This document shows, one piece after another, positions 10,686-40,781 of a stretch of 64,000 nucleotides of DNA. Numbering within the stretch: the stretch's first letter is position 1; every line of letters starts with the position of its first letter. Position numbers and translations under genes: made by a program. The stretch is from Eledone cirrhosa (Eukaryota): assembly GCA_964016885.1 (NCBI GenBank), contig OZ024749.1, positions 5,208,001 through 5,272,000 of the forward strand. Reading direction: 5' to 3'. Under the pieces are notes generated by a model. It was not told the DNA's origin and made no database searches. It saw only the letters and a list, made by a program, of their open reading frames with translations.

Positions 10686-12583
10686 TGCCATTCTGGAGGT
10701 GATACCTGTGATGTTTCACCGACAGTCTGCCGCCATTCTGGAGGTGATAGCTGTGATGTTTCACCGACAGTCTGCCGCCATTCTGGAGGTGATAGCTGTG
10801 ATGTTTCACCGACAGTCTGCCGCCATTCTGGAGGTGATAGCTGTGATATTGCAGAGACAGTCTGCAACCAATCTGGGGGTGATAGCTCTGATGTTACACA
10901 GACACCATGCCACCATTCTCGAGGTAATAGCTCTGGTGTTGCCCAAACACTCTGCCACCATTCTGGGGGTGATAGCCCTGATGTTACACAGACACCCTGC
11001 ACCCATTCTCGAAGTAATAGCTCTAGTGTTGCCCAAACACTCTGCCATCATTCTGGAGGTGATAGCTCTGAGGTTTCCCAGACACCCTGCACCCATTCTC
11101 GAAGTAATAGCTCTGGTGTTGCCCAAACACTCTGCCACCATTCTGGGGGTGATAGCCCTGATGTTACACAGACACCCTGCACCCATTCTCGAAGTAATAG
11201 CTCTAGTGTTGCCCAAACACTCTGCCATCATTCTGGAGGTGATAGCTCTGAGGTTTCCCAGACACCCTGCACCCATTCTCGAAGTAATAGCTCTGGTGTT
11301 GCCCAAACACTCTGCCACCATTCTGGGGGTGATAGCCCTGATGTTACACAGACACCCTGCACCCATTCTCGAAGTAATAGCTCTAGTGTTGCCCAAACAC
11401 TCTGCCATCATTCTGGAGGTGATAGCTCTGAGGTTTCCCAGACACCCTGCACCCATTCTCGAAGTAATAGCTCTGGTGTTGCCCAAACACTCTGCCACCA
11501 TTCTGGGGGTGATAGCCCTGATGTTACACAGACACCCTGCACCCATTCTCGAAGTAATAGCTCTAGTGTTGCCCAAACACTCTGCCATCATTCTGGAGGT
11601 GATAGCTCTGAGGTTTCCCAGACACCCTGCACCCATTCTCGAAGTAATAGCTCTGGTGTTGCCCAAACACTCTGCCACCATTCTGGGGGTGATAGCCCTG
11701 ATGTTACACAGACACCCTGCACCCATTCTCGAAGTAATAGCTCTAGTGTTGCCCAAACACTCTGCCATCATTCTGGAGGTGATAGCTCTGAGGTTTCCCA
11801 GACACCCTGCACCCATTCTCGAAGTAATAGCTCTGGTGTTGCCCAAACACTCTGCCACCATTCTGGGGGTGATAGCCCTGATGTTACACAGACACCCTGC
11901 ACCCATTCTCGAAGTAATAGCTCTGATGTTGCCCAAGCACTCTGCCATCATTCTGGAGGTGATAGCTCTGAGGTTTCCCAGACACCCTGCACCCATTCTC
12001 GAAGTAATAGCTCTGGTGTTGCCCAAACACTCTGCCACCATTCTGGGGGTGATAGCCCTGATGTTACACAGACACCCTGCACCCATTCTCGAAGTAATAG
12101 CTCTAGTGTTGCCCAAACACTCTGCCACCATTCTGGGGGTGATAGCTCTGAGGTTTCCCAGACACCCTGCACCCATTCTCGAAGTAATAGCTCTAGTGTT
12201 GCCCAAACACTCTGCCACCATTCTGGGGGTGATAGCCCTGATGTTACACAGACACCCTGCACCCATTCTGGCGTGATAGTTCTGATGTTGCACATACACC
12301 CTACCGCCATTCTGGAGAGGATATCTCGAATGTTACACAGACAATCTGCCACCATTCTGGGGGTAATAGCTCTGATGTTACACAGACACCCTGCCACCAT
12401 TCTGGGGGTGATAGCTCTGATGTTGCCCAGACACTCTGCCGCCATTCTGGGGGTGATAGCTCTGATGTTGCCCAGACACTCTGCCGCCATTCTGGAGAGG
12501 ATATCTCTAATGTTACACAGACAATCTGCCACCATTATGGGGGTGATAGCTCTGATGTTGCTCAGATATTCTGCCGCCGCCAT
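10686..12583. repeat. 45-bp minisatellite (~42 units) with a 180-bp (4x45) higher-order repeat, ~7.5 copies at 10921-12270
   Basis: Unit e.g. gaagtaatagctctggtgttgcccaaacactctgccaccattctg; sequence repeats identically every 180 bp over 11101-11820; ORFs 10699-12276(+) and 10806-12299(-). Confidence 0.95.
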
Positions 12584-15999: not shown

Positions 16000-16322
16000 A
16001 ATGGCGTAGGACAGAAGAAAGGAAAGGCACAGAAACAAAGAAAGGAATCCCCAGTCACTGAAGAGGTCACAGAGTGTGTGACGAAAGGACTATGACTATA
16101 TATAAACAACTATCTGGTTGTGAAACCAACCAACCAACCAGAAATTTAGAAATTTGTAGATTTGTAAATTTATAAATTTATAAATATATAATAAATTGAA
16201 GTGAAAGCAATTGGTGCGTATGTTTCTTATTGGCAACATGACCCTCCCAAAGTATAACAATATCGGTTTCAACACACGATTTCAGATAAAGAATCTTGCT
16301 AAACAAATTCAGAAACGAAATG
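16000..16322 (+). mobile_element. Short non-autonomous TA-associated element carrying a hammerhead (Penelope pLTR-like, family A)
   Basis: Contains the hammerhead at 16053; 3' part catgaccctcccaaagtataacaat..aacacacg.tttcagataa is shared with 35400-35490, 23770-23840 and 36070-36140(-); ends in (TA)n. Confidence 0.65.
16053..16097 (+). ncRNA. Minimal type I hammerhead ribozyme motif
   Basis: AGTCA-CTGAAGA-gGTCACAgagtgTGTGAC-GAAA-ggac-TA-TGACT: helix I AGTCA/TGACT, helix II GTCACA/TGTGAC, 1-bp helix III with a 4-nt loop. Confidence 0.7.
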
Positions 16323-16561: not shown

Positions 16562-16565
16562 ATAT

Positions 16566-16905
16566 AACAGAACACACTCACTGTTTGGTTGGTTTTCGCT
16601 TCTCGCTGTCTTTTATATCTGCGATCTAACTTACTCGGTCCTCAATGTTGCCATTGACTGACCGGCGGTAAAAAATAATACAGATACAATATATAAATTG
16701 TAACTATATATATGTGTTTGTGTCTATATTGTATCTGTATTATTTTTGACCGCCGGTCAGTCAATGGCAACATTGAGGACCGAGTATGTGCAGATCGCAG
16801 ATATAAAAGACAGCGAGAAGCGAAAACCAACCAAACAGTGAGTGCGTTCTGTTATTAATTCTGGCAATATTACGCAAATATGACCCTCCCCAAGTATAAC
16901 AATAT
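16566..16905. mobile_element. Fold-back element (arms 16566-16692 / 16726-16853, right arm extended), family A-related
   Basis: aacagaacacactcactgtttggttggttttcgcttctcgctgtc... is mirrored by ...gacagcgagaagcgaaaaccaaccaaacagtgagtgcgttctgtt. Confidence 0.85.
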
Positions 16906-16908
16906 TTG

Positions 16909-17005
<97 letters not shown>

Positions 17006-17529
17006 ATATATATATATATATATATATTTGTATATATATATATATATATTTGTATATATATATATATATATTTGTATATATATATATATTTGTATATATA
17101 TATATATATATATTTGTATATATATATATATATATATTTGTATAAATATATATATATATTTGTATATATATATATATATATATTTGTATAAATATATATA
17201 TATATTTGTATATATATATATATATTTGTATATATATATATATATATTTGTATATATATATATATATTTGTATATATATATATATTTGTATAAATATATA
17301 TATATATTTGTATATATATATATATATATATTTGTATATATATATATATATATATTTGTATATATATATATATATTTGTATATATATATATATATATATT
17401 TGTATATATATATATATATATATTTGTATATATATATATATATATTTGTATATATATATATATATATTTGTATAAATATATATATATATTTGTATAAATA
17501 TATATATATATTTGTATATATATTTGTAT

Positions 17530-17723
17530 ATAACGAAGGAAATGTGGTAAGGAACCAGGTGGACCATAACGCACCAACGTACTCAATACTTGGGGTAGTA
17601 GAGTGGGTAATAGGAACCAGTAAGACCCCGACGGCTGAGCTCAAGCCGTTTCGACGGCTAATTCTAGGGAATTAGCCGTCGAAACGGCTTGAGCTCAGCC
17701 GTCGGGGTCTTACTGGTTCCTAT
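17530..17723. mobile_element. Fold-back element family B (palindrome 17610-17723)
   Basis: ataggaaccagtaagaccccgacggctgagctcaagccgtttcgacggctaattc-tagg-gaattagccgtcgaaacggcttgagctcagccgtcggggtcttactggttcctat; both ends lie in TA satellite. Confidence 0.85.
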
Positions 17724-18186
17724 ATTTGTATATATATATATTTGTATATATATATATTTGTATATATATATATTTGTATATATATATATTTGTGTATATA
17801 TATATATTTGTGAATATATATATATTTGTGTATATATATATATTTGTGTATATATATATATTTGTATATATATATATTTGTGTATATATATATATTTGTA
17901 TATATATATATATTTGTATATATATATATATTTGTATATATATATATATTTGTATATATATATATTTGTATATATATATATTTGTATATATATATATTTG
18001 TATATATATATATATATTTGTATATATATATATATATTTGTATATATATATATTTGTATATATATATATATTTGTATATATATATATATTTGTATATATA
18101 TATATATATATATATTTGTATATATATATATTTGTATATATATATATATATATTTGTATATATATATATTTGTATATATATATATA

Positions 18187-18330
18187 TGAGCTCAAGCCGT
18201 TTCGACGGCTAATTCTGGACTAAGTCCAGAATTAGCCGTCGAAACTGCTCGAATTCAGTCGTCGGGGTCCTACTCGTTCCTATTACCCACTCTACTACCC
18301 TAAGTATTGAGTATTTTGGTGTGTTATTCG
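18187..18330. mobile_element. Fold-back element family B
   Basis: gtttcgacggctaattctggac-taa-gtccagaattagccgtcgaaac, then a long right arm ...ctctactaccctaagtattgagta. Confidence 0.85.
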
Positions 18331-18565
18331 AATATTAATAATAACATTCGATTCGTTTGCAATTATGCAAACAAGCCTCAATTTTATAGCCATGTCAGTA
18401 AAATGAACACTTCATTCTTGTTCGTATGTTGGCATGCGAACAGAACTGCAGAAACTAGTGTTTCGGGGTATCACCCTTCATCAGTACAGCTCACTGTTCA
18501 CCTGACAAACTGTCAGATCTAGTGGAAATATCTGCTATTTTGAAAAATACACAGTGACTGATAGG

Positions 18566-18812
18566 CCTGATTTGCATATTAGCAGACTGGCTAAACAGTC
18601 AGATCTGCATATTAACAGACTGGCTGATCATTCAGATCTGCATATTAACAGACTGGCTTATCATTCAGATCTGCATATTAGCAGATCTGACTGATCATTC
18701 AGATCTGCATATTAGTAGACTGGCTTATCATTCAGATCTGCATATTAACAGACTGGCTGTTCATTCAGATCTGCATATTAACAGACTGGCTGATCATTCA
18801 GAGCTGCATATT
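18566..18812. repeat. 33-bp tandem repeat, ~7 copies
   Basis: cagatctgcatattaacagactggctgatcatt unit. Confidence 0.9.
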
Positions 18813-19086
18813 CTCGTAATTCTCAAGGACAGCCTTCGTGTAAAGGTAACATACTTAAATTACATCTACACCTCATTGGTTTCCCTTATTATTTAATTGA
18901 TACCACGTGAAATAATGTCCTTCAACCACGGACACAACACACTGACAGAAATCGAACTGATGACCTTACTGATTTGATCAGATTTCACTCACTAATCCAT
19001 GTGCACACACAATATATAAGTCATTATATAAGTGTCTGTCCTTTCAAAGAAGGTATTTTAAAGCGACGAATTCTTGACCGATTAAT

Positions 19087-19136
<50 letters not shown>

Positions 19137-19142
19137 TCTCTT

Positions 19143-19178
<36 letters not shown>

Positions 19179-19288
19179 CTTGTGTTGAAGCATGTACATA
19201 CATATAGTCTAAGGCATAGACGTATACAAATATAAACCATCACATATAATACACCGACGCTTATATGATTATATGGGTGTGTGTGTGG

Positions 19289-19331
<43 letters not shown>

Positions 19332-19352
19332 CATACATACATTAATATATAC

Positions 19353-19391
<39 letters not shown>

Positions 19392-21192
19392 CATACATAC
19401 TTTGTGAGAGAATGTCTGAAATATTGATCAACACATGAGTACATCATACACACGACTCACAATAAGCAATGCAGAGGCAATGACCATCGACGCACACACA
19501 CATATACACACTGATACACACATATATACATATTAACATCAACACCCACACAGACAATATCGCGTGAAAGCGAAGTACAGAAACGATTACAGCTTTAAAA
19601 AATGATCTGCCAAGGGTAGTAATTTATCGTAAAACTATTTCCTATAAATATGTCTTTTTAGAAATATTTCTGATTGGGCTGAATTACCCTTGCTGAAAGT
19701 GTATTATGATTGATTGATACAATAATATTGTTTAAAGACTTTTCATGTCTCTTCTAATCGTATTTTAATTTGCGGTCTTGATAAATGCTTTTGTGTCTTT
19801 CATCTATTGAGCTTACTTTTTTCGGAATTGTTTTCATCTCTATATTTGTAAACATACGGGAAACACCATAATCTATATGCACAGCTATTAAAAATATATA
19901 TCTGTATAAAGAAATCGACTTTGAGGTCTCAACGTTTCGTATGTTACATACACAATCATCAGTAGATTAAAAGATGTTTTTTTTTTTGTTTTCATTATTA
20001 ATAATATATATGAAATTTATTGTATTATGATGTTATGAATAAAAGAAACCAACGCAACAAAACGAGCGATCTGTTCATGATAATTGTAATATATATATAT
20101 TTGCAATCTCTCAAGATCTCTTGGGGAATAGATGTGAATTAATTATGGTAATAAAGTGTTCTACTAGGATCTACGTAGGATCTAAATATTAAATTAAATC
20201 TAGCAATGTATATATTGTGATAGATTATTTGATATTTCCGTCATAACAAACGGACTTTCTTCTCTAAAAGCAGCACAATGCAATATGTGAAATATCCTTT
20301 GCGTGTGTGGGTGACACAGTAAACATTGTAAATTGCCATTGCTTTCCACGTTCACTTAATGTGCAGAGATTGAATTCAGGCAACACAAGTACAGAATATA
20401 TAACGTAATGAACCGGAGTACGTACTACAAATCGCCGGAAACCAGACCTGCCAAACTCTAAAACCCCAAGAGGGGAGTACCATGAGCGAAGGCGCCCCAG
20501 AAAGGGGTCAAATGAGTCAAAATGGGAGATCTTTCATAATGAAAGTCATATCCATTTTCACAGACAATACATGTCTTACCCAACCCGAAGTCGGTGGAAG
20601 ATCTCCCCGTCGGACTGGGAGAGATGACAGTTATGGGAAACTTACACAGCAAAACATTTCGTTCGATCCTCTAACAACAGTTTCTCATTCTTTTAGTTGA
20701 AAAGCAGCAAATAGGTGACGCGGATGGGGAGATAATCGATACTATTGACCCCAATACTTGACTAGTACTTTATTTAATCTAACTAGTAATCTTGAATGAC
20801 TCTTTTGATCTCGGTATGATTTGAACGTCCGACTCCCTAACAATTCCTGCTGAACTAGTACATTATCTATGCAGCCCCAACAGATGTTGAACGGTGCTGT
20901 TGATCTAAATAGAAATTTGAACTTAGAATTCAGAGAACTGGCGCAAATAACATGTGGTGTTTATTCCTATGAATTAGAAATTATAGTGATTCGCTGTTGA
21001 GCTTAGTGAGTGATGAAACTTAATTTCATATTCTCGCATGTCACAGCCTCTTGTGCAGAGCGCAGAGAGCCACAATAAATGCTGTATGATGTATGTAGCC
21101 TGATGTCATCCGTCATCCTCATATTAGCCTTTGGTGCGGGACAGCCGTTGATTATGATTTAATCTGGTTGTATTCGAGTTCAATCTAAGGTA

Positions 21193-21380
21193 AATAATTG
21201 TTTCTACTTTTGGCACAAGGCCAACAATTACAAAATGCATTACTGGTACTTAATTTTATCGACCCCGTAAGGATGAAAGGCAAAGTTAACCTCGGCGGGA
21301 TTTGAAGTCAGAATGGCAAGGGACGTAAATCTATGGGTCAAAGCATGGTGTCCGACCCTCTAGCGATACTGCCAATCCAC
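21193..21380 (-). mobile_element. tRNA-derived SINE
   Basis: Full reverse-complement copy from tail aattgtttctac to head gatactgccaatccac. Confidence 0.9.
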
Positions 21381-21948
21381 CATAACTATCAATCTAAGGA
21401 GAATAATGGTCTTAGATACACACACACACATCTACACACTCACACACAAACCCCCACATGCACACGGACACACACAAATAACAATATTATTATTAATATT
21501 AATTATTTTCTCTTCCTTCTCGTTTTCTGCAAATCCTCTAGGAACTCACACCCACCTCACACCCAGATCCCTTTCAATCATGTTTATACCTATACTTTTA
21601 TTTATATTCATATTTGCATCTTTGCTTTCATCTGCAAACCCTAAAACTAATCTTGCTCTCTTGATACAAGGAATATATATATATATATATATATATATGT
21701 GTATGTATATGCAGAGGTTATATTTAACTTGTTGGGATTCAACGAGCTTAACATTTTTTATAACTCATATAAAGCACTCAACATTTAAATAAACCGTTAT
21801 CTTTTCAACTTTTCGGACACTCATTTGCATACTTACTCATAACTTTCTATTAGCCTCAATAAAATATTATCTCCACTATCCAGGAAGCTCCAACCGTTAA
21901 TGTTGTCTTTTTCCGGGTATGTCAATATTTATTTATGAAACAAATCTG

Positions 21949-22014
21949 TATTTTATCTGATGAAAGCGCACCATAATTTGCCTTTGTTGCCCTTGAAATA
22001 TATATAATAAAATA
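21949..22014 (+). ncRNA. Minimal type I hammerhead ribozyme motif (family C)
   Basis: TATTTTAT-CTGATGA-aagcgca...tgccctt-GAAA-tatata-TA-ATAAAATA; 8-bp helix I; palindromic helix III. Confidence 0.75.
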
Positions 22015-22055
22015 AATATGGCTTTATAAATATAGTTTCCATTTATTAATATAAA

Positions 22056-22248
22056 TATAACAAAGAAGGTAAGATACCAGATGGACCACAGCACAACGGA
22101 GTACTCGATACTTGGGGTAGTAGAGAGTGTAACAGTGAAAAGAGTCAGGATCCCGTCGGCTGAGCTCCGGCCGTTTCGACAACTATATCCATTCGTAGCT
22201 AGCTGTCGAAACGGCCGGGGCTCAGCCGTGGGGATCCAGATTATTTTC

Positions 22249-22250
<2 letters not shown>
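22056..22250. mobile_element. Fold-back element family B (diverged)
   Basis: ggatcccgtcggctgagctccggccgtttcgaca...tgtcgaaacggccggggctcagccgtggggatcc; left arm homologous to 17530-17610. Confidence 0.8.
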
Positions 22251-22283
<33 letters not shown>

Positions 22284-23292
22284 CTAGAAAAAATGAAACA
22301 AAATTTCATTTCTCACTCTTAGTACGGCTGTTACTTAAATATAAGTATGTATACGTACATACATATATGTATACAGACGTACAGTAGTATGTATATATAT
22401 ACATACATGCACACACATATATACATGTACGTATGGATTTACCTAGCATTTATTATAATGCTCGGTTTGTTTGTAAACATACATCCCGAATTAAGCCGTA
22501 CAGTGTTTAGCAACCATCGTTGCCCTTTTGTTCAACACTGACAAAGGAACGATGTACTAGTTTCAAGCTTATTAGCTATCGTCAGCACTGTATACCTTCC
22601 TGCAAGATGATTGAACGTCTGAAAGTATATACTTTCCTTATGCATATTAACGGGTGAGCAGCCTAATTTGCATATCAAGTGAGTTAATCGGCCGGGCGCA
22701 CCGAAAACGATAAATGGAAAAATTGAAACGAAATTTAATTTCTCACTCTTAGTACGGCTGTTACTTAAATATAAGTATGTATACGTACATACACACATGT
22801 ATACAGAATCACCTTCACTTTGTAACTATAACCTTTCTTTTGAATGGAGCTTTACCCCCATTGTTTCATTATACATACATACATACATACATACATACAT
22901 ACATACATACATACATACATACATACATACATACATACATACATACATACATACATACATACATACATACCATCATATATATATATACATAGTATTTTAA
23001 CTAATATATATATATAACTCTACCTGAAACACCATAATCGAGGTGAGCACATATATAGAGATGTACCAATATATGTGTGTAAGCCATCTCTCCAGTCCAT
23101 TCAGCTGGCAAAATAGGAGTTGTATGAGATCACACAGGTGTCCCGCTGAATCTCACTGGGAACTAAATTCAGGAAATAGCTACGCCAATTTAATAAACAG
23201 GTTGCTCCATTACAATTGTAATACTCGTGGCCCAAACAGATAGAAGCCCAACACCACACAGACGGATATAGTTTGTTGACTACATATATATA

Positions 23293-23490
23293 TATAGGAA
23301 CAAGTATGACACCGACGGCAGAGCTCAAGCCGTTTCGACGGCTAAATTCAGTCCAGAATTAGCCGTAGAAACGCCTTGAGCTCTGCCGTTGAGGACATAC
23401 TTGTTCCTATTAATCACTCTACTACCCTAAGTATTGAGTACTTTGGTGCGTTATGGGCCATCTGGTTCCTTACCACACGTCCTTCGTTAT
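23293..23490. mobile_element. Fold-back element family B
   Basis: ataggaacaagtatg...gtttcgacggctaa..ttagccgtagaaacg...catacttgttcctat; right arm extends to ccttcgt(TA)n. Confidence 0.85.
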
Positions 23491-23581: not shown

Positions 23582-23622
<41 letters not shown>

Positions 23623-23845
23623 ATCTGTATTTTTAACCAATGGTCAATCAACGATAAACATTGATTGCTAGATAAATTAATTATGGAGATATAAAAGACA
23701 CAGAAGCCAAAACCAACCCAAACCAAAAAGTGAGTGTGTTCTCTTATTATTTCTGGCAATATTGCAACAATATCACTCTCCCCAAATAAAACAATGTTTC
23801 AACACACGTTTTCATATAAAAAATACCATGCAAAACAAAAATATA
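23510..23845 (+). mobile_element. Family A-related element with a CTGATGA remnant interrupted by (TA)n
   Basis: aaaatggcgta...ccaCTGATGA(ga-TA)n, then ttgtatctgtatt...gagtgtgttctcttatt.tttctggcaatatt homologous to 16728-16900. Confidence 0.6.
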
Positions 23846-35124: not shown

Positions 35125-35497
35125 ATATTGTTATACTTTGGGAGGGTCATGTTGCCAAAAAGAAGCACACTTCCCCGTCGTTTTTTGTTTCAATTTATTA
35201 TAAGTTTCCGGTTGGTTGGTTCGAAAAGGCGGAAGGTTGTTAATATATTGTCAAATATCTATTTTCGTTGAGGAGGTCACAGAATGTGTGACGAAATAAC
35301 TTTGACAATATATAAACAGCCTTCCGGTTATCAAACCAACCAGCAAGCCAACCGGAAACTTATAATAAATTGAAGTGTAAACCAACATGTGTGTTTTATT
35401 GGCAACATGACCCTCCGAAAGTATAACAATGTGTTCCAACACACGTTTTCAGATAAGTAATCTCGCAAAACAAATTAAAACACGAATTATATATATG
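35125..35497. mobile_element. Fold-back version of the family A element with its axis at the hammerhead core
   Basis: attgttatactttgggagggtcatgttgcca...atattgtcaaa..tttcgt | tgagga-ggtcacagaatgtgtgac-gaaa..tttgacaatat...tggcaacatgaccctccgaaagtataacaat. Confidence 0.8.
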
Positions 35498-38216: not shown

Positions 38217-38285
38217 ATTTTATTATGCGCATTTCAAAAACAAACATCATCAAGCAATAATATTTGTGTTTTCATCAGATAAAAC
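38217..38285 (-). ncRNA. Hammerhead ribozyme, antisense copy in the inverted pLTR
   Basis: Reverse complement of 41767-41835. Confidence 0.8.
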
Positions 38286-38666: not shown

Positions 38667-40781
38667 ATGGGTGATAGAGAGAAAGAGATGGTTTTTATAA
38701 CTGAGAAAAAGATATATTGTTTTAAAAATGTTTTAGTCCACTCTGACAAAACCAATAACCTATATGGTATTTCCAAGGATAATTATAACAACCTTATCCT
38801 AAAGGAACTTAGGAAAAAGTATCGTAAAACCAACCATGAAAATTTAGAATGCATAAACCTTGAAGCCTATGAGATTATGTCAAAACTTGGCATTGAAAAA
38901 AAGACCGAACCATTCCTCCCAAGAACTCCGAGGATAAATCTCAAGGATCACAAAAACAATTTTCGCACTGAACTACCTGTTAGATTAATCGCCCCCTCTA
39001 AATCTGATCTGGGGGTTGTTAGTAAAGCCATCTTGGATAGGATTATCCCACAGGTTTGTTCTAATTGCTCTTCTTTAAACCTAAATTTATGGTTTGGTAC
39101 TTCTGAAGTGATTGGCTGGTTCAACAAATTGGATAATAAAAACAAACTAAAATTTATTCAATTCGATATTGCCAGCTACTATTCCTCCATTTCGCCTTCA
39201 CTTCTCAATAATGCTCTATCTTTCGCACTTAAATATTCTGACATCACCACATATGAACTTCACATTATCCTCACCGCACGTAAAACCATCCTAGATTTCA
39301 ACAACGAATATTGGACCAGAGCCGATACCTCTAACAACTTTGACATCACAATGGGAGCATCCGATTCATCCCAATTGACTGATTTAATTGGTATCTTCAT
39401 TTTGAACTCTTTGAGTCGGAAAATTCCTCAACTTCGCGGTGGAATTTATCGTGACGATGGACTCTTTACTATCCTAAATTGCAATATAGTTAAACTTAAT
39501 ATTATTAAGAACAATATACGTAATCTCTTTAACCAACATAACCTAAAAATTGAATTTGATAATAATATCAAACTAGCTAATTTCTTGGATGTATCTCTTA
39601 ATCTTGACACTGGCCTATATTACCCTTACCATAAAAACAATGAGAATCTTAATTATGTTAACTTTAAATCTAACCATCCTACCAATATCAAGAATGCTAT
39701 AGTTAATAATATTGGAAATAGAATATCTAACATATCTTCTAATAAAAACATCTTTGATGCTAACGCCAATTACTATAATAACGCACTTTCTAAAGCCGGC
39801 TATCCAGATAAAATCAAATATAATAAAGAAACAAATTCTAGGAAAACTTACAGTAGAATAATTAATCATGACCATTCCAATAATTTTAATAAAAGACCTA
39901 GATACAAAAACATAATCTGGTATAATGCTCCTTTCTCCATCTCTATTAATAATAATATTCCTAAATTATTTTTTAGTGCCTTAAATAAATGCTTCCCTCC
40001 CTCACATATCTATAGTAAAATATTTAACAAACACACCATCACATTTTCATATTCTACATCCTCCAATATTTCCAACATCATCTCTAAACACAACAACAAA
40101 ATATTAAATACTAAATCTCTTCCTTCCAATATTGAATTTCATAATAACAGTAATAGTACTCCCGACGTCATTGTAAACCCTAGGCAAACTTCTGTAAACC
40201 CAAATACAACGTCAAACACAACTTCGCTAAATGTTCATAATCCAACTCTAAATCAAGAAACTATTATTCCTATTATTCCTATCGCAAACAACTTCTCCAA
40301 TCCAATTCCTTCTATAGATAACACTAGATCACTCATTAATAATCTCTCTAATTGCAACTGCCGCATTAAAAATAAATGTCCTCTCAACAACCATTGCCTC
40401 GATAAAAACTTAATTTATGAATGTAAAATTATAACTAGCACCAATTCCTTCATCTATTTTGGCTCCACTTCCACCTCTTTTAAAGCTCGTCTCTATAATC
40501 ATCATTCATCTTTCAAATACAAACTTAAAAGAACTAACACTGCTCTCTCAGAACTCATATGGTCCTTAAAAGACAAAAACATTAAATATAACATCTTTTG
40601 GAAAAAGATTTCTTCTGCATCCTCATACTTGAACAGCTCTCTATCTAAAATCTGTAATCTTTGCCTAAATGAAAAATTTACCATTATCTCTAACCTAGAA
40701 TCTATAATAAATAGACGCTCAGATTTGTTTTCTATCTGCCTGCATAAATTCCATAGAACTTTTCACAAAGTATACAGTTAA
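38667..40781 (+). CDS. Penelope/Naiad reverse transcriptase-GIY-YIG endonuclease (704 aa; first ~19 aa come from the inverted pLTR)
   Basis: SDKTNNLY (DKT variant of the PLE DKG motif), LKDHK..F..PVRLI, FDIASYY, MGASDS, YRDD, NFLDV, CNCx5Cx5C, LIY..YFG(ST), FKARLYNH, CNLC..EK..CLH; no stops. Confidence 0.92.
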   Translation: MGDREKEMVFITEKKIYCFKNVLVHSDKTNNLYGISKDNYNNLILKELRKKYRKTNHENLECINLEAYEIMSKLGIEKKTEPFLPRTPRINLKDHKNNFRTELPVRLIAPSKSDLGVVSKAILDRIIPQVCSNCSSLNLNLWFGTSEVIGWFNKLDNKNKLKFIQFDIASYYSSISPSLLNNALSFALKYSDITTYELHIILTARKTILDFNNEYWTRADTSNNFDITMGASDSSQLTDLIGIFILNSLSRKIPQLRGGIYRDDGLFTILNCNIVKLNIIKNNIRNLFNQHNLKIEFDNNIKLANFLDVSLNLDTGLYYPYHKNNENLNYVNFKSNHPTNIKNAIVNNIGNRISNISSNKNIFDANANYYNNALSKAGYPDKIKYNKETNSRKTYSRIINHDHSNNFNKRPRYKNIIWYNAPFSISINNNIPKLFFSALNKCFPPSHIYSKIFNKHTITFSYSTSSNISNIISKHNNKILNTKSLPSNIEFHNNSNSTPDVIVNPRQTSVNPNTTSNTTSLNVHNPTLNQETIIPIIPIANNFSNPIPSIDNTRSLINNLSNCNCRIKNKCPLNNHCLDKNLIYECKIITSTNSFIYFGSTSTSFKARLYNHHSSFKYKLKRTNTALSELIWSLKDKNIKYNIFWKKISSASSYLNSSLSKICNLCLNEKFTIISNLESIINRRSDLFSICLHKFHRTFHKVYS

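Follow-up and report, generated by a model that had tools for sequence, protein, structure and literature searches.

The DNA considered here is a window of 64,000 nucleotides from Eledone cirrhosa (contig OZ024749.1, positions 5,208,001 to 5,272,000; C9:5208001-5272000 of genome G000), which holds four palindromes lying in or next to TA repeat. An earlier note on this DNA, made from the letters alone, had read these copies (family B) as fold-back elements organized around a hammerhead ribozyme. All four lie where that note placed them, and analysis of the 3.0-Gb animal genome to which the window belongs established that family B consists of short head-to-head stubs of a Penelope-like element (PLE). 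Each stub joins two mirrored pieces of the pseudo-long terminal repeat (pLTR) of that element, one arm stopping about 20 nt past the predicted ribozyme cleavage site and the other about 100 nt past it, both in (TA)n. Positions along the pLTR are given on a scale in which 0 is the first base 3' of GUC, the predicted ribozyme cut, and negative numbers lie upstream.

The first copy, B1, has its symmetry axis at 17666.5. Its long arm (17530..17665, minus strand) corresponds to the parent pLTR from -36 to about +100, including the 80-nt tail, with 97% identity to the pLTR of the parent copy at locus L121; an apex of 3 nt (17666..17668), the sequence of which varies between copies, separates it from the short arm (17669..17723, plus strand), which runs from -35 to +20, ends in (TA)n and is 98% identical to the parent. 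B2 (18187..18327, plus strand) is arranged about an axis at 18222, with a long arm from -41 to +64 on the plus strand and a short arm from -43 to -6 on the minus strand; the outer ends of both arms are shortened and both arms extend to an initiator-like AGTCC. B3 (22056..22250, long arm on the minus strand, axis 22192.5) is an older copy with 78-81% identity to the parent. In B4 (23293..23490, axis 23352; 88-90% identity to the parent) the long arm covers -41 to about +100 on the plus strand and the short arm about -32 to +20 on the minus strand. A BLAST search within the 64-kb window found no fifth copy. B1 is contained in, and B2 adjoins, a (TA)n-derived array (16909..18187); (TA)n is the insertion target type of the Hydra PLEs (PMC8557442).

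Within the short arm of B1, the stretch 17681..17709 (plus strand) reads GAAAC, helix III, GTC and GGGGTC, as the earlier note had it. Comparison with the parent pLTR and its fold upholds the view that the arm comes from the pLTR of a PLE and represents the 3' half of its type I hammerhead, comprising GAAA, a palindromic helix III, GUC and the 3' strand of helix I, and the predicted cut falls between 17703 and 17704. The 5' half of the hammerhead is missing from all four window copies, none of which has a complete core. That much of the claim that a mirror arm has replaced the core half is correct, but the supposed helix II at the apex is a mirrored 3' strand: what pairs there are two mirror copies of the helix II 3' strand, the natural 5' strand and loop being missing. 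Two further details in the earlier note carry no weight. The exchange of GAGCTC for GAATTC in helix III is not covariation, GAATTC being present in one arm of B2 only and the other arm having GAGCTC; and the apex of B3 pairs simply as mirror-image arms must, not by virtue of a conserved helix II. Among the matches listed by an Rfam scan of the 64-kb window (150 of 194), mostly microRNA models on simple repeats, there was no hammerhead.

Family B is abundant throughout the genome. A 22-mer from the long arm has 32,149 exact matches, and mirrored arms lie within 30 nt of one another at 15,747 loci; both counts are lower bounds and lie far above chance expectation, reversed-pattern controls having given 0. 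With B1 as the query, 2,104 first-look candidates were obtained, 40 of which were scored, all at 96% identity or more. Thirty loci were examined, representing 29 insertions, the best copies being 96-98% identical. Read by eye, the long side ends in (TA)n in all 29, while the short arm has a fixed end in 28 and the remaining insertion has two long arms. Such fixed outer ends, and such identity among the best copies, are what would be expected if family B were a non-autonomous unit, whether a miniature inverted-repeat transposable element (MITE) or a palindromic retroelement, that is copied whole. The same small sample, however, contains 11 different apices among its 29 near-identical insertions (by eye), a count that may be blurred by later deletion or flipping at palindrome centres, and an identical apex recurs across subfamilies. 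The asymmetric ends and the continuity with a PLE bearing an open reading frame (ORF) likewise speak against whole-unit copying, which we regard as extremely improbable. The stubs are probably dead ends and not mobile whole units.

The parent element was recovered from non-inverted copies, about 33 of which were found by eye among 100 rows listed in which the sequence upstream of the apex was inspected. The parent order is ACCCC (the helix I partner), TTGANAA, a long helix II, GAAA, helix III, GUC and GGGGU. The earlier note had called for a non-inverted parent with a helix I partner and a CUGANGA core upstream of helix II; the parent with its ACCCC exists, but its core is UUGANAA. Thirty of the 57 CTGANGA matches were read and none was a family B parent with that core, these being chance junctions, chimeras or other families. 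A search for CUGANGA overlooks the family B ribozyme. At locus L121 (G000:C1:11224000-11233900) the parent has an inverted 5' copy, a partial tandem and an ORF of 719 amino acids (L121:5080-7239), in which a motif check identified RWR, DKT, YRDD, CxCx5C, GIY-YIG, CxxC and CxH. A single ORF thus combines reverse transcriptase (RT) and GIY-YIG endonuclease, as in endonuclease-containing (EN+) PLEs, and loci L121-L125 display the EN+ PLE architecture of partial-tandem pLTRs, an inverted 5'-truncated copy and a tail at one end. Homologues of the parent ORF numbered 2,054 at E<=1e-20 among 8,000 scored, and nearly all of the 120 listed are unnamed; PF01541 is present in the best of these homologues and PF26215 in many. 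Neither the parent ORF nor the PLE ORF found in the window itself gave a Pfam match at E<=0.1.

The motifs of the parent ORF (DKT, the CxCX5C linker, CxxC and CxH, without CCHH) are those of the Hydra clade, except that RWR replaces RWK, and the insertion of all 29 copies in (TA)n agrees. The length from pLTR to pLTR is 3,118 bp, with a deletion in the 3' untranslated region (UTR), and the unit would be about 3.1-3.5 kb; Hydra-clade elements are "generally" below 3 kb (PMC8557442). By its motifs and (TA)n target the parent is placed as an intact Hydra-clade PLE. A Neptune/Nematis identity was rejected, the motif check having found neither the CX2-5CxxC linker nor CCHH nor DKG. Helitron-type, MITE and retrozyme readings were dropped once the ORF-bearing parent was found. 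A MITE requires symmetric terminal inverted repeats and a constant interior, whereas family B has asymmetric ends and a variable apex, a point on which the earlier note's rejection of DNA-transposon MITEs proved sound; a non-LTR retrozyme would consist of tandem units, each with a complete hammerhead, an arrangement that family B does not have. A target-site duplication, fixed or not, would be masked by the surrounding (TA)n.

The ribozyme of the parent is a U3-A8 variant of the type I hammerhead, with its 3-8 pair, a free N7, GAAA, an NUH triplet and helices I-III. Across 19 natural parent copies U4, G5, A6, A8, A9 and G10.1 are invariant, U3 is found in 18, and core position 7 is free (A in three, G in nine, C in one, T in six). 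Helix cells are paired in 90.7% of cases in the natural copies. The three-way hammerhead junction is the minimum-energy structure in three of the four parent copies folded, and a predicted co-fold of two copies through the palindromic helix III reaches -62.9 kcal/mol, compared with -23.2 for one. Replacement of C3-G8 by U3-A8 has already been reported in Schistosoma PLEs (PMC4209133). In one subfamily two parent copies (L064, L101) have C3 together with A8, a mismatched core pair from which weak cleavage would be expected.

Breakpoints were tabulated for the first 100 consecutive long arms on C1, all breakpoint samples being drawn solely from the first 67 Mb of that contig; the 3' ends of the inverted arms were taken from a separate reading of the loci, the alignment behind the table having run into TA there and being unreliable. 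Relative to the hammerhead the breakpoints are non-random: 50 of the 100 long arms begin at -45 to -33, while 11 continue through the core into the parent 3' UTR. Inverted partners begin in the same zone in 55 of 78 cases by script, a set that, by eye, includes five spurious TA matches and overlooks about five genuine partners. The 3' strand of helix II makes up this hot zone. Helix II is what the earlier note had proposed as a pivot, in that the complementary DNA (cDNA) would copy through helix II and snap back on the ribozyme's own helix. The exact product of such a fold on the inner hairpin does exist, in two of the first 50 (by eye) of the 1,062 loci at which both arms reach -44, and 19 of the first 50 of 709 mini-palindromes are collapsed at the palindromic helix III. 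The outer-helix product, however, has 0 matches genome-wide against 15,747 palindromes, and in nearly all copies the apex lacks the helix II loop and 5' strand. Snap-back on helix II is thus refuted as the main route; we consider it highly improbable as an account of family B, and it may be responsible for less than about 2% of copies.

The hot zone also contains an initiator-like TYAGTC, with A at -41, which we take to fit the invertebrate initiator consensus. An internal promoter is known in the Penelope element of Drosophila (PMC2377424). Arms that start at A(-41) are often preceded by a base that comes neither from the partner nor from the parent, and this base is G in 31 cases, C in 13 and A in four (n=48; 99 of 100 rows recovered). 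The extra G accompanies 16 of 26 arms at A(-41) as compared with four of 24 at other positions (Fisher p=0.0016), it is found on both arms in L203, L254, L256 and L259, and none of 99 rows contained a parent with G at -42. Such a base is what RT would leave by copying the cap or by adding a C on reaching the end of its template. No paper on cap-derived G in insertions of retrotransposons was found in a literature search. At two loci (G000:C1:84703528 and 138798036) each arm has an extra G ahead of A(-45), which lies within a second initiator-like sequence, TCATTT, possibly a second start.

Palindromes of this kind are also made by a second PLE family (1,119 matches), at a point some 120 nt upstream of the ribozyme core; the axis is therefore not tied to helix II and instead follows a fixed 5' end. 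In this family (L275-L286; L031, L040, L053) each arm carries a complete canonical hammerhead and the apex is a self-complementary CATATG, sometimes joined head to head to family B arms. These data also bear on the idea that RT stalls in the inner hairpin of helix II and that the stalled cDNA ends are joined, in which case the ribozyme fold would set the breakpoints. The stretch from -45 to -35 does coincide with the 3' strand of the predicted inner hairpin of the parent, and a peak at -37 lies at the hairpin base. Yet the extra G is specific to -41, RT would have passed helix I, helix III and outer helix II before stalling, and the other family folds far from its ribozyme, all of which renders stalling improbable. 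The apex fits an RNA 5' end better than an RNA hairpin. The fold points are likely to mark where the RNA of the element began or was cut by the ribozyme, as judged from genomic copies.

Cutting is suggested by a smaller class of copies. Copies that start exactly at the predicted cut gave 314 matches, against 19 for a control 3 nt upstream; by eye, about 26 of 100 listed cut-site rows do not represent genuine 5' ends, and a CpG is part of the control pattern, so that this ratio is overstated and the true one would be nearer 230:19. Among the first 50 mini-palindromes, 31 end at the cut site (by eye), eight of them consisting of two arms with a single A or T between. These ends would point, indirectly, to cleavage by the U3-A8 ribozyme in vivo. 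The in vitro study of an Anolis PLE saw no RNA reads with either end at the site of its ribozyme (PMC11167929). A recurring variant that lacks the cleavage-site C and most of helix II starts directly after a TA run (G000:C1:399278256, C2:104654217) and may be a separate non-autonomous lineage.

In light of these observations, we hold with moderate confidence that family B arises as head-to-head pLTR pieces from two run-off cDNAs joined end to end, the pair probably being made anew at each insertion. Transcription would start at the initiator within the 3' strand of helix II, which in this proposal is the reason that the core half is missing from the stubs. The GIY-YIG domain would nick both strands of a TA repeat, and RT would prime at the two internal sites by which the PLE tail is defined; using the copy of those sites at the RNA 5' end, it would make cDNAs of only about 60 and 140 nt, copying the cap or adding a base at the end of the template. 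The two cDNA ends would then be joined, with an overlap of 0-4 nt or a short insert. RNAs cut by the hammerhead would yield the smaller class that starts at the cut site; here the complete ribozyme in the 3' pLTR may cleave the 5' half-ribozyme in a double-hammerhead arrangement, which is the least supported step. The Anolis PLE protein has two internal RT starts that define the tail, extends both target strands and uses uncut RNA in vitro (PMC11167929). The outer ends of family B, fixed at +20 and about +100 in (TA)n, match the two internal PLE RT starts.

The origin of the second arm is the point on which a rival account differs. In that account a single RNA is copied: the tail-primed cDNA would reach the RNA 5' end, so that the apex would still be the RNA end, fold through a match of 1-4 bp that leaves a small loop, copy itself to +20 and join the TA repeat. 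Many apices indeed resemble hairpin loops of 3-6 nt closed by 1-4 bp, as snap-back would leave. In 39 of 49 pairs the two arms have the same subfamily haplotype, against a mean of 9.2 after shuffling, an agreement that fits one template as well as one source locus. When an arm has G ahead of A(-41) and its partner begins further 3', it is the long arm in 14 cases and the short arm in five. There is also precedent, since R2 snap-back after full-length cDNA has been described (PMC11371274) and self-priming has been proposed for PLEs (PMC3846280). Against this, among the 41 pairs whose ends both fall in the hot zone, the arm that extends further 5' is the long one in 17 and the short one in 16, with eight ties, and a short arm that extends further 5' is impossible for a copy of the long cDNA. 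Apices with spacers of 0-1 nt occur, as do extra G residues on both arms, and family B arms are found head to head with those of other PLE families (L031, L033, L034, L040, L053; a selective pattern from which no rate is derivable). Finally, long parent copies end at +20 (L062, L068, L075, L121), and +20 therefore behaves as a true RT start. We judge run-off followed by snap-back unlikely, though it is the strongest of the rival accounts. Twin priming is judged roughly twice as likely as snap-back, and both may operate.

Several of the results already given weigh against the joining of two run-off cDNAs from initiated or cut RNA, namely the small-loop apices, the haplotype agreement and the bias towards long arms with the extra G, together with the qualifications attached to the C1 sample, the scripted partners, the apex count and the cut-site ratio. 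To these must be added that, in long inversions, the tailed arm is the one further 5' in six of eight (by eye). Start peaks at -40, -37 and -35 match the height of that at -41, and both arms reach -44 at the 1,062 loci mentioned above; the 5' end would therefore be ragged or there would be several starts. Covariation in the helices of the parent ribozyme is not above that of shuffles, the copies being too alike, and fold z-scores are modest (-0.8 to -3.0). Start site, cap and cleavage are moreover deduced here from genomic copies. The full scenario, in which the transcription start site lies inside helix II, the 5' end of the RNA is a half-hammerhead lacking the core and cleavable by the full 3' ribozyme in a double-hammerhead fold, and twin-primed cDNAs run off capped or cut ends and are joined, would make the palindromes a map of the cap site, of in vivo cleavage by the U3-A8 ribozyme and of a twin-primed origin of inverted pLTRs across PLEs. 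We advance it tentatively, its chances falling somewhat short of even.

Other pLTR pieces, fold-backs and arrays are present in the window. Another PLE ORF, which also has the CxCx5C linker and GIY-YIG, is represented by its 3' part at 39501-40780 and 41774. After it comes a pLTR whose hammerhead is a canonical CTGATGA one, with a minimal helix III that is palindromic, and the head of this pLTR recurs in inverted orientation at 38278. Hammerhead-like pLTR pieces from other families occur at 16058, 21957, 35127-35430 and 50727, that at 35127-35430 being a fold-back in which one arm retains a core-like motif. A further family of fold-backs in TA repeat, also with a long and a short arm, is found at 16565-16900 and about 23620-23800 and is probably the same kind of stub. 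Elsewhere in the genome, the intact CTGATGA hammerhead at L051 belongs to another family and has the GAGCTC palindrome in its helix III loop as well. Tandem arrays lie at 10688-12575 (90-nt units, which could be a coding repeat) and at 18569-18812 (33-nt units).

The origin of PLE inverted repeats and the in vivo role of their hammerheads are called open in the literature (PMC8557442, PMC11167929, PMC4209133). In family B, junctions formed independently number in the thousands, and footprints resolved to a single base within them point to where the RNA starts and where the ribozyme cuts; if the interpretation is true, the stubs would be a fossil record of PLE self-copying. The results also matter for repeat annotation, in that numerous palindromes which resemble MITEs and lie in TA repeats can prove to be stubs of a retrotransposon. 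Inverted truncated pLTRs, tails, TA targeting, pLTR hammerheads, U3-A8 and self-priming are already in print (PMC8557442, PMC4209133, PMC3846280). The novelty that the earlier note had suggested for a ribozyme-pivot route holds only in part, as self-priming at PLE inverted junctions had been proposed (PMC3846280), albeit not at a ribozyme helix. Our literature search yielded no account of palindromes made of pLTR alone in which an extra G at the apex marks the start of the transcript, nor of genomic PLE copies that end at the ribozyme cut, although older Penelope work may hold part of either. The accessible portion of a paper on Octopus repeats (PMC13282606) makes no mention of palindromes, hairpins or Hydra elements.

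The parent of family B shares with the Hydra PLEs (Craig et al. 2021, PMC8557442) the C-terminal GIY-YIG, DKT, the CxCX5C linker, CxxC, CxH and the lack of CCHH, as well as (TA)n targets, a pLTR hammerhead, an inverted 5'-truncated copy and a one-end tail. It differs in having RWR for RWK, a unit of about 3.1-3.5 kb, a U3-A8 core and at least 15,747 pLTR-only palindromes with a fixed apex zone; its tail is 80 nt long, compared with 30-40 bp for PLEs in general (PMC8557442). Akin to the Poseidon PLE of Anolis (Frangieh et al. 2024, PMC11167929), it would use two internal RT starts that define the tail, cleave and extend both strands of AT-rich targets and take uncut RNA as its main template; Poseidon belongs to another clade, and the accessible part of that work does not address the head-to-head junction. 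With the PLE hammerheads, including that of Schistosoma Cercyon (Cervera and De la Pena 2014, PMC4209133), the parent has in common the type I fold, a long helix II, U3-A8, a palindromic helix III suited to dimers and opposite-strand motif pairs 100-700 bp apart, whereas here the helix III stem is 5-6 bp, the paired copies are coreless and genomic copies end at the predicted cut. The non-LTR retrozymes (10.64898/2026.07.22.740005) are likewise short, non-coding derivatives of PLE pLTRs with hammerhead sequence, but they are head-to-tail tandems with complete ribozymes, in contrast to the head-to-head and coreless stubs of family B, which show no sign of moving as a unit.

Models of self-priming, snap-back and twin priming also yield inverted pieces, and family B departs from them in that its two arms cover one and the same part of the template and the extra G can occur on each of them. 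L1 twin priming draws its two pieces from separate parts of one RNA. With the self-priming of inverted pLTRs (Arkhipova et al. 2013, PMC3846280) family B shares palindromes at head-to-head junctions and initiator-like pLTR motifs, and with R2 snap-back (PMC11371274) and L1 twin priming (via 10.1101/2024.12.14.628481) it shares inverted pieces that arise from snap-back or from a second primer.

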